Shown here piece by piece: positions 249-26,218 of a stretch of 64,000 bases of DNA. The notes under the pieces were generated by a model. It was not told the DNA's origin. It searched no databases and saw nothing but the letters and a program-made list of their open reading frames with translations. A program made the translations under genes and the position numbers. This DNA is from Omnitrophica WOR_2 bacterium GWF2_43_52 (GTDB taxonomy: Bacteria; Omnitrophota; Gorgyraeia; Gygaellales; UBA12090). How positions within the stretch are numbered: the first letter of the stretch is position 1; each line of letters starts with the position of its first letter. The stretch covers positions 73,651 to 137,650 of the forward strand of contig MHGF01000028.1 in NCBI GenBank assembly GCA_001805445.1, read 5' to 3'.

Positions 249-809
249 ATGCGCACCTTTATCGCTATCGAATTAGAAGAAAAAATAAAAGAATTTCTTT
301 CTAAGATTCAGGCTGAATTGAAAAAATTAGATGAGGATATAAAATGGGTTACTCCTCACAATGCGCATTTGACCTTAAAGTTTTTAGGAGAAGTAGAAGA
401 GCAAAAAATCCCAAAAATAATCCAACTACTTAAAGAAATAGCCTGCGCTGCAAAACCATTTACTATTGAGATAAAAGATATCGGAAGCTTTCCAAACCTG
501 AAATCACCGAGGGTTATCTGGGTAGGCGTTGAAAAAGGCAAAGAAGAATTAACGCGCCTGGCACATACGGTAGAAGACGCGCTCGTAAGCTTAAAATTCC
601 CTAAAGAGAGCAGGGCTTTTTCCACCCATTTTACCTTGGGCAGAGTCAAGCATATTAAAGATACGCAAGGTTTTCAGAAAGAAGTTGAGCAAATTCAATT
701 TCCCTTACTTGCCCAGGAAGTCACCTCCGTAACCCTCTTTAAAAGCACCCTTACCCCAAAAGGTCCAATCTACGAGAAACTAACCGAAACAAATTTAAGC
801 GGTAGATAA
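249..809 (+). CDS. thpR: RNA 2',3'-cyclic phosphodiesterase / 2'-5' RNA ligase (2H phosphoesterase, LigT/ThpR family)
   Basis: Two H-x-T-x motifs (HLTLKFLG, HFTLGRV) typical of the 2H family; 186 aa. Confidence 0.8.
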   Translation: MRTFIAIELEEKIKEFLSKIQAELKKLDEDIKWVTPHNAHLTLKFLGEVEEQKIPKIIQLLKEIACAAKPFTIEIKDIGSFPNLKSPRVIWVGVEKGKEELTRLAHTVEDALVSLKFPKESRAFSTHFTLGRVKHIKDTQGFQKEVEQIQFPLLAQEVTSVTLFKSTLTPKGPIYEKLTETNLSGR

Positions 810-810
810 C

Positions 811-878
811 AAAAAAGGGGACGGGTTCATTTTTTATCACGTATCTTTTTCTTAAAAAATGAACCCGTCCCCTTTTTT
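811..878. terminator. Long hairpin (20-bp stem AGGGGACGGGTTCATTTTTT / AAAAAATGAACCCGTCCCCT) flanked by A/T runs; bidirectional intrinsic terminator candidate, copy 1 of a repeated element
   Basis: Perfect inverted repeat seen directly; identical stem recurs at 9667-9740; lies between ligT stop and the 3' end of the tRNA-Tyr locus. Confidence 0.6.
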
Positions 879-892
879 GCTTTTAAAATAAA

Positions 893-1189
893 TGGGCAGG
901 AGAGGATTCGAACCTCTGAAGCACAGGTGCAACAGATTTCAAGTGCCCTCAAGTTACCTCGAGGCTTGGACTATCTCATCATCCTTTTTGCAGGATGGTA
1001 GGCGCTTAGTCTCTGCACCTTCCCCGATAATCCCTAGATAGAAATAGGCACATATCGGGGCTTGGCTCAGGATTGCCCGCCACAAAACTCTGGCGGGGTT
1101 CCCTGAATTCACCTACTTTTCCACCATGCATTACTGCATGGCGCTGCGTTTACACAGTCTGTCCCCTTTGGCCGCTTGGGTACCTGCCC
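893..1189 (-). tRNA. tRNA-Tyr(GUA) gene interrupted by a 214-nt group I intron in the anticodon loop (exons 1189-1154 and 939-893)
   Basis: 7-bp acceptor stem GGGCAGG/CCUGCCC plus discriminator A. D-arm CCCAAGCGGCCAAAGGGG is nearly identical to E. coli tRNA-Tyr. Anticodon stem ACAGA...UCUGU. Joined loop CUGU|AAA gives anticodon GUA. Long variable arm GCACCUGUGC and T-arm AGAGGUUCGAAUCCUCU. CCA is not encoded. Confidence 0.65.
940..1153 (-). other. Group I intron (self-splicing ribozyme candidate, no ORF) inside tRNA-Tyr
   Basis: Follows exon U and ends with G (omega-G). P1 pairing CUGU/GCAG with U.G at the splice site. P2 hairpin CCAUGCA-GUAAU-UGCAUGG. R-like GUGCAGAGACUAAG, S-like GAGAUAGUCC and Q-like AAUCCUGAGC elements. 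P5 (CCCGCCA...UGGCGGG), P6 (CCCCGAUA...UAUCGGGG) and P8 (AUCCU-GCAAAA-AGGAU) hairpins. Confidence 0.6.
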
Positions 1190-1428
1190 ATAAAAAACTA
1201 TATTCTTTTACCCAATTCTTAATTACATTTAGTAATTTCTTGTCATTATATCTAATATGCACTAAACCGTAAAGCAATTTTCTCTTACTCACATCCACCT
1301 TATTCATTATTATATTTGGAAATTTCCTGGTTATTGTAATTTTTGTCTCAGCATAGAGCTTTAACTATATCTCAATTTAATTTATCTATGTACATATTTT
1401 ACTGAATAATTTATCAAAATTATTTAAA

Positions 1429-1501
1429 AGCTGGCGACCCGAATTGAACGGGCGACCCCCTCATTACAAGTGAGGAGCTCTACCAACTGAGCTACGCCAG
1501 C
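1429..1501 (-). tRNA. tRNA-Thr(UGU)
   Basis: Reverse complement gives GCUGGCGUAGCUCAGUUGGUAGAGCUCCUCACUUGUAAUGAGGGGGUCGCCCGUUCAAUUCGGGUCGCCAGCU; cloverleaf with anticodon loop CUUGUAA. Confidence 0.85.
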
Positions 1502-1506
1502 AAAGT

Positions 1507-1932
1507 CTATTTTTCAAGCAAGTCAAATCTCGATTCATACTTTCTAGCCATAATCACAAATTTCTTTTGCTTATTTTTAGTTGGTGATAAACGTAACTTG
1601 AGACATCTCTTATTTCCAACGTTATTAAGCGAAATAAAATATACCTTGTTTGATTGAGGAGAATAAGCAGCAATAATGTCTACATCTTTTCGTGAATAAT
1701 GTATTATGTTATAATTATTTGAGCTCCTAAAAGATATGTCTATTACACCGTTTTTAGGTGTAATATATTTAACTTGAATGCGCTTAAAAATTCCATTCTT
1801 CTCGCTCACAAGGTCATACCGGCCATCTTCTCCCCATGGAACAAGAACATTAAACCCTTCTTGTTTTAATAAATAGGCTACATATGCTTCGGCAATATCG
1901 CCTTTTTGCTTTGTAATAGCCATCTCAACCAC
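1507..1932 (-). CDS. Small PD-(D/E)xK nuclease-fold protein, YraN/UPF0102-like
   Basis: Motif GDIAEAYVAYLLKQEGFNVL...GRYDLVSE...RIQVKY resembles GE-x-A...YL...G-[D/E]-IDLV...VEVK of the YraN family; 141 aa. Confidence 0.4.
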   Translation of the reverse strand: MVEMAITKQKGDIAEAYVAYLLKQEGFNVLVPWGEDGRYDLVSEKNGIFKRIQVKYITPKNGVIDISFRSSNNYNIIHYSRKDVDIIAAYSPQSNKVYFISLNNVGNKRCLKLRLSPTKNKQKKFVIMARKYESRFDLLEK

Positions 1933-2821: not shown

Positions 2822-3167
2822 AAGTATGCGTATGCGACATACTGATAATAATATCCGTGATTTGTTTAGCCTCTTTTATCTTTAATGCCTCACCTGAGAG
2901 GCGGATATAAGGCTTCCCGAATTCATCATTTAATACTTCTATATTATGCCACTCAATATGCTGAATCGAAGAATCACCAATTGCCTTAAGTACTGCTTCT
3001 TTAGCGGCAAAACGCGCTGCCAAATGTTGATAGGCAAACTTTTTATTCTGTGAATACTGTACTTCATTATCGGTAAATATCCGTTTTAAAAAGGCGCTAT
3101 CCCAGCGCTCAACAGCCTCTTTAATCCGCGAAACCTCAATGATATCTACTCCGATTCCCGCGATCAT
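2778..3167 (-). CDS. acpS: Holo-[acyl-carrier-protein] synthase
   Basis: N-terminal IAGIGVDIIEVSRI motif, 129 aa. Confidence 0.85.
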   Translation of the reverse strand: MIAGIGVDIIEVSRIKEAVERWDSAFLKRIFTDNEVQYSQNKKFAYQHLAARFAAKEAVLKAIGDSSIQHIEWHNIEVLNDEFGKPYIRLSGEALKIKEAKQITDIIISMSHTHTFAVANVILVKKSST

Positions 3168-3877
3168 GTGGCTAAAAGAAGCATCTGCCTTACCGCGGCC
3201 TCAAGGCCTACAAAGATACTCCGGCAAATGATAGAATAACCGATATTCAATTCTTCGATACCGCTTATGCGCGCGATTGGCTTGACATTATCATAATCCA
3301 GGCCATGGCCGGCATTCACGGTTAAACCCAAGGTTTGCGCGTACTCAGTTGCCTTAATAATTTCCGTTAATCGCGCCTCCCTATGCAGCTTTGTTTTTGC
3401 CTCCGCGTAACGGCCTGTATGAATCTCAATGATCTTTGCCCCGACTTCAGGCGCTAAAGCTATCTGTCTCTTATCCGGATCAATAAACAAGCTTACGTCT
3501 ATACCGCTCTTTCGCAATTGCTCAATAACCTTGGCTAACCGGCGCTTATAGGTAATGATACATAAGCCTCCTTCAGTAGTAAGCTCCTGCCTTTTTTCCG
3601 GAACCAGCGTTGCCTGGTGAGGTTTGAGCCGACAGGCAATCTCTACAATCTCGGGAACAATCGACATCTCCAGGTTAAATCTTGTTCTTACCGTCTTTTT
3701 CAAGCGCTTCACATCGCTATCATTAATATGTCTTCTGTCCTCTCGCAGATGCGCTACAATAGAATGACTTCCTGCCTTCTCGCAAAGAGAAGCCGCAGAG
3801 ACAGGATCAGGAAATACTCCCTTGCGCGCCTGGCGCAGCGTTGCCACATGGTCGATATTAACACCCAATTTTGCCAT
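3164..3877 (-). CDS. pdxJ: Pyridoxine 5'-phosphate synthase
   Basis: LGVNIDHVATLRQAR...PDPV signature; 237 aa. Confidence 0.9.
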   Translation of the reverse strand: MAKLGVNIDHVATLRQARKGVFPDPVSAASLCEKAGSHSIVAHLREDRRHINDSDVKRLKKTVRTRFNLEMSIVPEIVEIACRLKPHQATLVPEKRQELTTEGGLCIITYKRRLAKVIEQLRKSGIDVSLFIDPDKRQIALAPEVGAKIIEIHTGRYAEAKTKLHREARLTEIIKATEYAQTLGLTVNAGHGLDYDNVKPIARISGIEELNIGYSIICRSIFVGLEAAVRQMLLLAT

Positions 3878-9750: not shown

Positions 9751-9827
9751 TGGTGGCGGGAACTGGATTTGAACCAGCGACCTAACGGGTATGAGCCGTC
9801 TGCTCCACCGGGCTGAGCTATCCCGCC
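9751..9827 (-). tRNA. tRNA with anticodon CAU (elongator Met or lysidine-modified Ile2), CCA encoded
   Basis: GGCGGGAUAGCUCAGCCCGGUGGAGCAGACGGCUCAUACCCGUUAGGUCGCUGGUUCAAAUCCAGUUCCCGCCACCA; G1-C72 pair argues against initiator. Confidence 0.8.
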
Positions 9828-26009: not shown

Positions 26010-26218
26010 AGAAATTTGAACTTTGACACTATGTGTAAACGTACCAATTGTCCCGGCCCTCGATAAGCTCGGTCGGGATCCCGCTAAAGCGGGAAAAAAG
26101 GCTAACTAAGGGTAACCTTGGGGCGCAAAGCTACCTGTCCGCCAATCACTATGGCGGATAGAGGAGCTGCCAAGCTGGTGAAAAACCTCAAAAATGCCTT
26201 TTTGAGGTTTTTTGTTTG
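26010..26218 (+). ncRNA. Structured leader / candidate riboswitch or sRNA: several hairpins, then intrinsic terminator (26184-26218)
   Basis: Hairpins CCCGGCC...GGTCGGG, CCCGC-TAAA-GCGGG, TCCGCCA...TGGCGGA; terminator AACCTCAAAAA-TGCC-TTTTTGAGGTT-TTTTGTTT; contains GGGGCGCAAAGCUACC. Confidence 0.35.

Follow-up and report, generated by a model that had tools for sequence, protein, structure and literature searches.

The group I introns of Azoarcus tRNA-Ile(CAU) and Anabaena/Nostoc tRNA-Leu(UAA) belong to subgroup IC3 and are inserted at 36/37 (Ile) and 34/35 (Leu). They are about 200-250 nt long, have a P1-P9 layout without the P5abc extension, and have P2 and P9 capped by GNRA loops. In these introns L2 faces an 11-nt receptor located in P8, and the exons are aligned by the anticodon stem rather than by a strong P10. 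The available text of Williams (2020; bioRxiv 10.1101/2020.01.27.920355) extends the bacterial tRNA introns from four classical settings (Leu, Arg, fMet and Ile2) to 21. That of Nakagawa et al. (2026, mSystems; PMC13011429) finds, in 4,934 complete genomes, 28 introns located at 35/36, 25 of which are classed as subgroup IA, and lists in its Table 1 a group I intron at 35/36 of tRNA-Tyr(GUA) in the Patescibacteria genome GCA_016699995.1; Omnitrophota are not among the phyla named there as having 35/36 introns. The same text reports that the 35/36 introns in tRNA-Asn and in tRNA-Asp splice themselves accurately in vitro and that changing omega-G to C abolishes the joining of the exons. It also infers low mobility for tRNA introns that lack an open reading frame (ORF), and describes PF11645 genes inside tRNA-fMet and tRNA-Arg(UCU) introns and HNH genes inside some tRNA-Asn introns. 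Here we analysed a 64,000-nt stretch of DNA from the Omnitrophota bacterium Omnitrophica WOR_2 bacterium GWF2_43_52 (contig MHGF01000028.1, positions 73,651 to 137,650; hereafter the window). Positions 893-1189 of its minus strand very probably represent a working tRNA-Tyr(GUA) gene that is split at 35/36 by a compact, ORF-less, self-splicing group I intron.

A preliminary description of this stretch had proposed a tRNA-Tyr(GUA) host with a 7-bp acceptor stem, a T arm and a long variable arm at the ends of the locus and a 214-nt insert in the anticodon loop. These elements were found as described, on the minus strand (Table 1). ARAGORN in intron mode, run independently, called a tRNA-Tyr(gta) with a 214-nt intron at 'actgt-Intron-aaatc', with borders identical to those proposed. 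The anticodon-stem strand UCUGU resumes after the 214 nt, and manual splicing gave the expected loop CUGUAAA; the joined exons form an 83-nt class II cloverleaf with a 7-bp acceptor stem, which ARAGORN recognises as tRNA-Tyr(gta). When the spliced exons were compared with E. coli, the annotated tRNA-Tyr was matched in 5426 of 5426 complete genomes (79.5% identity over 88% of the length), in agreement with the proposed host. The discriminator A73 is invariant in the 96 homologues described below, and the tRNA stems are 97-100% paired with compensatory changes. The anticodon stem ACAGA/UCUGU (A27-A31 with U39-U43) remains paired around the intron. Default ARAGORN missed the split tRNA-Tyr and found only a tRNA-Thr (1429-1501) and a tRNA-Met (9751-9827), and no transfer-messenger RNA (tmRNA), in the window. 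Brute-force ARAGORN over every splice combination was uninformative, with many artificial joins accepted (Ser, Phe, Asn, Ala), and the borders were therefore taken from ARAGORN intron mode and from the rule that a U precedes the intron (U-1) and a G ends it (omega-G).

The group I identity of the insert was confirmed by the Rfam covariance model Intron_gpI (RF00028), which matched 1163-947(-) over model positions 1-253 of 253 with 93.3 bits (gathering score 50; E 1e-22). No reading frame over the locus exceeds 58 aa, and the frames overlapping the intron are short and unsupported, for which reason we call the intron ORF-less, as had been suggested. U is the last base of the 5' exon, and G (940) that of the intron. 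P1 consists of CUGU/GCAG with a U35.G7 wobble at the 5' splice site, plus an extra pair between intron G1 and C6. Together with a perfect P2 and the core strings Q (AAUCCUGAGC), R (CAGAGACUA) and S (GAGAUAGUCC), these are the hallmarks to which the preliminary description had pointed, and all of them are present in the window intron. U-1, omega-G and the P1 pairing CUGU/GCAG are invariant in 96/96 homologues, and the first intron nt changes in concert with the nucleotide that precedes GCAG (G..C, A..U, C..G, U..A). P7 holds a bulged A next to the invariant G-C pair of the guanosine site; because P7 is invariant, covariation neither supports nor contradicts it. The junction pattern of J8/7-P7', 3' splice site and T arm occurs once in the window versus 0 times in 100 shuffles. 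Folding of P1 together with the intron gives a minimum free energy (MFE) of -94.2 kcal/mol (z = -6.5 versus shuffles), and an unguided MFE fold recovers P1, P2, P4, P5, P6a, P8 and P9.

Related genomes were searched for the same insertion by scanning one genome per GTDB species with a pattern made up of J8/7-P7', the 3' splice junction and the T arm, and at least 119 loci matched. At least 95 further tRNA-Tyr(GUA) genes are split identically, with CAGACUGU followed by an intron of 181-290 nt that ends in G and then by AAAUCYG; the other matches are ordinary tRNA-Ser genes and a few chance matches. The labels and types given here apply to the split genes among the matches listed; of these genes, about half are labelled Omnitrophota and about a third Patescibacteria, and two are viral contigs. 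The window and the 95 further sequences comprise 52 sequences of type A, 40 of type B and four of neither type. Type A, to which the window belongs and in which it is counted, includes 41 Omnitrophota/Omnitrophica, six labels beginning with Planctomycet and three odd labels that probably reflect mis-binning, and is thus nearly confined to Omnitrophota-labelled genomes. Type B includes 30 Patescibacteria or Candidate Phyla Radiation (CPR) bacteria, nine 'uncultured Gammaproteobacteria' and one Bdellovibrionales. The labels of several metagenome-assembled genomes (MAGs) conflict with their introns and tRNAs, namely L009, L023, L062, L063, L073, L090, L104 and L113 ('uncultured Gammaproteobacteria') and L089 (Methanosarcinales archaeon). 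Their introns and tRNAs are near-identical to those of Magasanikbacteria/CPR or Omnitrophota, so mis-binning or mislabelling is likely. The introns closest to that of the window come from Omnitrophota MAGs, with 80-82% identity across all 297 nt. The whole locus is present as identical copies in three metagenome assemblies from different samples, namely JGI 3300009296, ENA ERZ27254754 and ERZ5996431, and the proteins adjoining it are identical to those of the Omnitrophica WOR_2 bacterium MAGs GWF2_43_52, GWA2_44_7 and GWC2_44_8.

The structure projected on the 96 sequences is paired in 89.8% of cells, versus 34-52% with the 3' partners slid, and 62 pairs are double-changed. The covariation score of 0.470 compares with 0.07-0.15 for the slid partners and was reached by 0 of 500 shuffles. 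Type A alone (n=52) is paired in 95.6% of cells, versus 35-51% with slid partners, with 46 double-changed pairs; all seven pairs covary in each of P2, P6a and P9. P2 shows compensatory changes at all seven pairs with 96% of cells paired, and the middle pair of P9.0 shows 44 double changes across types. A tertiary signal was also observed within type A: L2 is GAAA and P8 resembles the 11-nt receptor (CCUAAR...YAUGG) in 44/44 sequences, and in seven of the eight others, window included, a GUAA, GCAA or GAGA L2 occurs with a plain UCC/GGA P8 (Fisher 6e-8). Because the nearest neighbours of the switched sequences keep the majority state, this L2/P8 switch arose at least four to five times. The Rfam gathering score was reached by 6/6 type A relatives tested (77-101 bits), by 3/9 of type B and by 0/2 viral copies.

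Both viral contigs, L125 (IMGVR_UViG_3300014047_000002, 99 kb) and L127 (IMGVR_UViG_3300028833_000064, 185 kb), carry large tRNA arrays. Their tRNA-Tyr is split between CUGU and AAAUCUG by an insert ending in G, with a longer P1 region, and several other 'tRNA' matches in these arrays are 120-160 nt long and may hold small insertions. A search of the phage GenBank collection with the intron core gave short, weak matches only (Klebsiella phage FKP3 and the DNA polymerase intron of Ralstonia phage BOESR1). Beside the split tRNA-Tyr of an Uhrbacteria MAG (L057:~3100-3350(-)), ARAGORN intron mode found a tRNA-Thr(GGU) with a 178-nt intron, a possible example of the 'divergent group I introns' that Patescibacteria are described as having in tRNA-Thr.

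The window intron resembles the classical IC3 introns, as generally known, in size, P1-P9 layout and GNRA loops, and differs from them in its host tRNA and insertion site. It has no P5abc and no P7.1/P7.2, and its L2-P8 contact shows type-matched covariation, an architecture that is compatible with IC3. Most type A relatives have the P8 motif CCUAAR...YAUGG, comparable to the 11-nt receptor of the Azoarcus and Anabaena introns, whereas the window combines GUAA with a plain P8. About 36 extra nt, forming two small hairpins, lie between the P7 5' strand and P3' in eight relatives (L003, L004, L031, L067, L070 and L089 of type A, and L034 and L075), a further difference from the classical introns. 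These hairpins sit at the P7.1/P7.2 position of subgroup IA, and the family therefore straddles the usual IC3/IA distinction.

The preliminary description had also held that a Tyr insertion would fall outside the documented hosts. This claim is out of date, in view of the Tyr(GUA) 35/36 intron in Table 1 of PMC13011429 and the 21 classes of Williams (2020). The window intron belongs to a catalogued kind that is frequent in two groups of uncultured bacteria; neither paper, in its available text, describes the Omnitrophota type or how abundant it is. The Patescibacteria Tyr intron of GCA_016699995.1 has the same host tRNA, anticodon, insertion site and U-1/omega-G borders as that of the window and likewise no ORF; under the naming scheme of Williams (2020) its class would be 'Tyr.4Ug'. 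Type B introns from Patescibacteria share with the window the P1 guide GCAGC, P7 (GUAGAGACUA/AUAGUCC) and P9, whereas type A differs from them in its P3-P6 sequences and has much higher Rfam scores. According to the available text of PMC13011429, the 35/36 introns in tRNA-Asn and in tRNA-Asp occupy the same loop position, in host loops that, judging by their sequence, should also start with C32-U33-G34-U35. Those introns differ in their host tRNAs and are mostly IA, some with HNH genes, whereas the window intron lacks P7.1/P7.2 and an internal ORF. Introns at 35/36 are known in tRNA-Tyr, -Asn and -Asp perhaps because C32-U35, which is read by GCAG, is common to all GUN-anticodon tRNAs.

In P1 of the window gene the guide GCAG pairs with C32-U35 and the U35.G pair marks the 5' splice site, with the anticodon stem ACAGA/UCUGU keeping both exons together across the intron. 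The core is formed by P3-P8 with a P3/P7 pseudoknot, L2 docks on P8, and by analogy the GUAA loop of L9 probably docks on P5. Following the established group I pathway, a free guanosine bound at the P7 G-C pair would attack after U35, omega-G (940) would take its place in P7, and the 3'-OH of U35 would then attack after omega-G, ligating U35 to A36. As CCA is not encoded, the mature 83-nt tRNA would receive it from the CCA-adding enzyme.

Several points weigh against a functional split gene. Splicing of the window gene is read from the DNA sequence alone; a second, uninterrupted tRNA-Tyr gene was sought with ARAGORN in the 64-kb window only, and none is present there; and there is no usable P10, the AAAU of the 3' exon being unable to pair with the nucleotides 5' of the guide. 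Because P10 is missing, exon alignment would, by analogy, rest on the anticodon stem and P9.0, as is reportedly the case for Anabaena pre-tRNA-Leu, which is said to align its exons in this way without P10. The confinement of our knowledge to the DNA of one window, together with the GUAA L2 and plain P8 in place of the majority GAAA/receptor pair, would suit a decaying pseudogene whose intron no longer splices, with another tRNA-Tyr copy decoding tyrosine. We consider this very unlikely, since the U.G pair, omega-G, the invariant P7 and J8/7 are all intact, and compensatory change keeps every helix paired in 52 related species, with the tRNA stems 100% paired. The minority L2/P8 combination is moreover a matched pair that recurs in seven sequences of several lineages, and the copies in the three independent assemblies are identical. 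ARAGORN returned 'Ser(tga)' with shifted borders for about one third of the homologues and for some artificial splices, and the same two-base ambiguity is reported for Asn/Thr in the available text of PMC13011429, so that the host might be read as a class II tRNA-Ser(UGA) with the intron two nt upstream (33/34). However, the shifted intron would end in C and the P1 U.G wobble would lie inside it, whereas the hallmarks at the Tyr borders are invariant in 96/96 sequences. The discriminator is G in bacterial tRNA-Ser and A in tRNA-Tyr according to the identity rules, so the A at this locus fits Tyr. The tRNA body matches annotated tRNA-Tyr, and where related Omnitrophota lack the intron, their alleles are ordinary tRNA-Tyr(GUA) with near-identical exons, which makes a serine host highly improbable. 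Another structured RNA with tRNA-like ends, such as the tmRNA that the preliminary description had named as the alternative, would share the tRNA-like termini and the size of about 300 nt. However, ARAGORN found neither a tmRNA nor a tag peptide, Rfam gave Intron_gpI as the only family at the locus and no tmRNA family at the gathering score, and the exons form a full cloverleaf with an anticodon arm, which tmRNA does not have; the chance of such an RNA is practically negligible.

Table 1. Features of the split tRNA-Tyr locus and its neighbourhood (window coordinates; intron nt are numbered from the 5' splice site)
Feature	Position	Strand	Sequence or pairing	Basis or support
tRNA-Tyr(GUA) 5' exon (tRNA positions 1-35, 36 nt)	1154..1189	(-)	1189-1154: GGGCAGGUACCCAAGCGGCCAAAGGGGACAGACUGU; 7-nt acceptor strand, D arm, anticodon-stem strand ACAGA, loop C32 U33 G34 U35	ARAGORN intron mode and manual splice
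Group I intron, 214 nt, starting after U35	940..1153	(-)	1153-940: start GUAAACGCAG, end GGGCACUUG; last six nt CACUUG; omega-G at 940	Rfam RF00028, ARAGORN, covariation
tRNA-Tyr 3' exon, 47 nt	893..939	(-)	939-893: start AAAUCUGUUGCACC, end CCUGCCCA; opens AAAUCUGU (A36 A37 A38, anticodon-stem strand UCUGU), then long variable arm, T arm, acceptor 3' strand CCUGCCC, discriminator A; CCA not encoded	ARAGORN intron mode and manual splice
P1	1144..1157	(-)	exon C32-U35 (1157-1154) and intron G1 (1153) with C6-G10 (1148-1144); loop UAAA	
P2	1124..1141	(-)	intron nt 13-19/24-30, perfect 7 bp, GUAA tetraloop (L2)	covariation
P3	1116-1110 with 1004-998	(-)	intron nt 38-44/150-156	99.2% of cells paired, type A (n=52)
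P4	1106-1101 / 1072-1067	(-)	intron nt 48-53/82-87	99.4% of cells paired, type A (n=52)
P5	1097-1076	(-)	intron nt 57-63/72-78	84-99% of cells paired, type A (n=52)
P6	within 1066-1017	(-)	intron nt 88-90/135-137	99.4% of cells paired, type A (n=52)
P6a	within 1066-1017	(-)	intron nt 94-100/126-132	87.8% paired, 7/7 pairs covary, type A (n=52)
P7	1013-1007 with 973-968	(-)	intron G141, bulged A142, 143-147 with 181-186 (UAGUCC); pseudoknot	100% paired, invariant (n=96)
P8	997-980	(-)	intron nt 157-162/169-174, plain UCC/GGA helix	88.5% paired, 4 covarying pairs, type A
J8/7	979-974	(-)		
P9.0	967-965 with 943-941	(-)	intron nt 187-189/211-213, AAG with CUU	91-100% paired
P9	964-947	(-)	intron nt 190-196/201-207, 7 bp, GUAA loop	7/7 pairs covary, 97-99% of cells paired
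omega-G	940	(-)	intron G214	
Relic of free-standing HTH-LAGLIDADG-like gene	1190..1319	(-)		BLASTP to P0011, synteny in L123
tRNA-Thr(UGU), upstream partner of tRNA-Tyr	1429..1501	(-)		ARAGORN, Rfam
Intact free-standing PD-(D/E)XK endonuclease gene	1507..1923	(-)	138 aa from ATG 1923	PF11645, PDB 2OST
Long perfect inverted repeat, likely bidirectional terminator	811..881	both	U-run on either strand	folding

The new element here is a LAGLIDADG-like gene family upstream of tRNA-Tyr. The window retains a relic of such a gene, comprising the last ~45 codons before the split tRNA-Tyr, and its frame continues into the tRNA. In BLASTP, aa 16-75 of the frame 1364..1134(-) aligned with aa 144-203 of the full-length protein P0011 at 65% identity (E 1e-27), and a near-identical sister genome, L123, has a full 200-aa ORF at the relic position (L123:9640-10311(+)). 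The family members are unannotated proteins of about 200 aa with a helix-turn-helix (HTH) and a predicted LAGLIDADG-fold domain bearing the motif LYWAEG (full copies, e.g., in L123, L005, L016 and L101; P0011-P0130). The LAGLIDADG fold comes from structure prediction, and profile searches of the family against Pfam, PDB and NCBIfam recognised only the N-terminal HTH. The E-G of LYWAEG is invariant in 53/53 sequences, the window relic being without that part, and from the motif the acidic residue may correspond to the catalytic position of a LAGLIDADG helix. In the Omnitrophota members the frame has no stop of its own and extends 34-107 nt into the tRNA and intron.

Directly upstream of the split tRNA-Tyr, the ORF is full-length in 44 of the 96 loci, a relic in seven, absent from 38 and not assessable in seven. 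We also collected 80 metagenome loci chosen solely by similarity to the LAGLIDADG-like protein, of which 78 were evaluable. In 78/78 of them the next gene downstream, in the same orientation and at a distance of -67 to +25 nt, is a tRNA-Tyr(GUA). The 35/36 intron is present in 55 of these loci, and the 23 (19 distinct) without it hold more distant homologues (45-52% identity). As these 23 homologues adjoin an intron-less tRNA-Tyr, the protein is unlikely to act as an intron maturase as its general role. Up to the end of tRNA-Thr the window and L123 share 98.75% identity, which falls to 80% across tRNA-Tyr and the intron. The drop at window 1417 / L123:9633, right after tRNA-Thr, resembles the edge of a recombination or gene-conversion tract; one boundary is visible, as the L123 contig stops short of the far edge of the low-identity tract.

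A second nuclease gene of the locus is intact. The 1507-1923(-) protein matched Pfam PF11645 with 94.5 bits (cut-off 26.1; E 7e-27) and PDB 2OST over residues 4-101 (E 4.5e-7), with the motifs KGDIAE, YDLV and QVK kept; its Omnitrophota homologues bear the NCBI name 'group I intron-associated PD-(D/E)XK endonuclease'. We take PDB 2OST to be I-Ssp6803I, the tRNA-fMet intron endonuclease. The window gene thus belongs to the same PD-(D/E)XK family as the enzyme encoded inside the tRNA-fMet intron of Synechocystis PCC 6803, but it is a free-standing gene located upstream of both tRNAs, 5 nt from tRNA-Thr and 317 nt from tRNA-Tyr. In 10 distinct loci, of which three (L064, L024 and L057) belong to CPR, a homologue is found 8-700 nt from a split tRNA-Tyr and on its strand; the position relative to tRNA-Thr varies among these 10. 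A tie between this gene and the Tyr intron, considered on the basis of these 10 loci in two phyla, was downgraded: four independently chosen homologues lie in the order PdxJ-AcpS-kinase-PDDEXK-tRNA-Thr-tRNA-Tyr-tRNA-Gly with an intron-less tRNA-Tyr. The same synteny in intron-less loci leaves the link weak, and the gene, being free-standing and having homologues at the same place by intron-less tRNA-Tyr, is not intron-encoded.

The anticodon stem of tRNA-Tyr varies with the presence of the LAGLIDADG-like ORF and of the intron. Where both are present, the stem is CAGA/UCUG in 41/41 fully parsed loci and in nine visible 5' halves, with CAGG/CCUG in one locus. Where both are absent (Omnitrophota), the canonical stem occurs in four of five. 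Where the ORF is present and the intron absent (L178-L206, compared with L208-L214 and A1/A2), CAGA/UCUG was found in 0/23, which have 16 different stems. In four of these (L181, L185, L189 and L193), the acceptor and T stems equal those of the window and 4-6 of the 10 anticodon-stem positions differ.

That carriers of the ORF have either the intron or a rewritten stem suggests that the intron may protect against a homing nuclease. A tentative reading, to which we give somewhat less than even chances, is that the tRNA-Tyr locus of Omnitrophota and Patescibacteria is home to unrecognised free-standing HTH-LAGLIDADG nucleases that would cut CAGA-CUGUAAA-UCUG, with the intron as their partner and as immunity. 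The putative target would be the palindromic anticodon arm, with the 35/36 insertion point at its centre. The intron would persist and spread as the partner of the nuclease and the immunity of the host gene, a form of collaborative homing in a cellular tRNA gene, and rewriting of the anticodon stem would be the alternative escape; to survive, a carrier of the nuclease gene would require one or the other. The window would then represent a late stage, with the intron retained and the nuclease gene reduced to a relic. Such a collaborative homing arrangement is known from phages (PMC3984707). The likeness consists in an ORF-less intron, a same-strand gene of nuclease fold beside the interrupted gene, a patchy distribution with relics, and a putative target disrupted, in genomes with the nuclease gene, either by the intron or by alteration of the stem. 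However, the phage cases concern protein-coding genes and tested enzymes, whereas here the gene is a cellular tRNA gene and the family is unannotated and known from sequence and predicted fold. The homing reading is weakened by the possibility that the genomes with ORF and without intron are phylogenetically separate from the others, and by the presence of only a relic in the window itself. The intron may instead be a vertically inherited, immobile passenger like the cyanobacterial tRNA-Leu intron, with the neighbouring nuclease-like genes unrelated to it, an explanation that is plausible but falls short of being probable. It would agree with the lack of an ORF, the wide distribution within one phylum, the syntenic place that the PD-(D/E)XK gene keeps by intron-less tRNA-Tyr in other Omnitrophota, and the low mobility of ORF-less tRNA introns inferred in the available text of PMC13011429. 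Intron-less alleles with near-identical exons nevertheless occur in the same phylum, the identity drop between the window and L123 points to a recombination breakpoint, and Omnitrophota, Patescibacteria and two viral contigs share an insertion at the same site. In addition, a gene of predicted LAGLIDADG fold abuts tRNA-Tyr in about half of the loci and relics do so in others, which also speaks against an immobile passenger.

If true, collaborative homing at tRNA-Tyr would be without precedent for a cellular tRNA gene and would explain the persistence of ORF-less tRNA introns, which current literature reads as immobility. It would also be an experiment of nature on how an essential RNA gene evades a nuclease, through intron uptake or through compensatory rewriting of its stem. 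The larger potential lies in the neighbouring nuclease genes, and the locus may reveal an interplay of ORF-less tRNA introns and free-standing nucleases; the intron alone matters mainly for annotation. Because default tRNA finders miss the split gene, Omnitrophota and Patescibacteria genomes seem to be without tRNA-Tyr and completeness estimates suffer, a point already made in the literature for tRNA-Asn and tRNA-Asp. The family of 96 sequences and two types, with clean secondary and tertiary covariation, offers useful natural data on the compact group I core and on the exchange of tetraloops and their receptors.

The order of tRNA-Thr and tRNA-Tyr is conserved, with a tRNA-Thr(tgt) upstream of tRNA-Tyr in many related loci. 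Downstream, a long hairpin with a following U-run lies 12 nt from tRNA-Tyr, with a 29-bp stem and a folding energy of -43.6 kcal/mol (z = -9.6; fold of 892-806(-)). The consensus terminator scan missed this hairpin because its loop exceeds 8 nt. From its predicted fold, it is likely to be a bidirectional terminator for the tRNA operon on the minus strand and for a converging gene on the plus strand. The converging gene, at 249-809(+), encodes a LigT/ThpR-type 2H phosphoesterase ('2'-5' RNA ligase'; PF02834, E 5e-33) and shares the terminator hairpin with tRNA-Tyr. Its adjacency is probably coincidental, as it was found only in the window's own lineage and in L099. Farther along the window, a cyclic di-GMP-I (c-di-GMP-I) riboswitch aptamer is present at 26090-26174(+) (Rfam RF01051, 59.8 bits).

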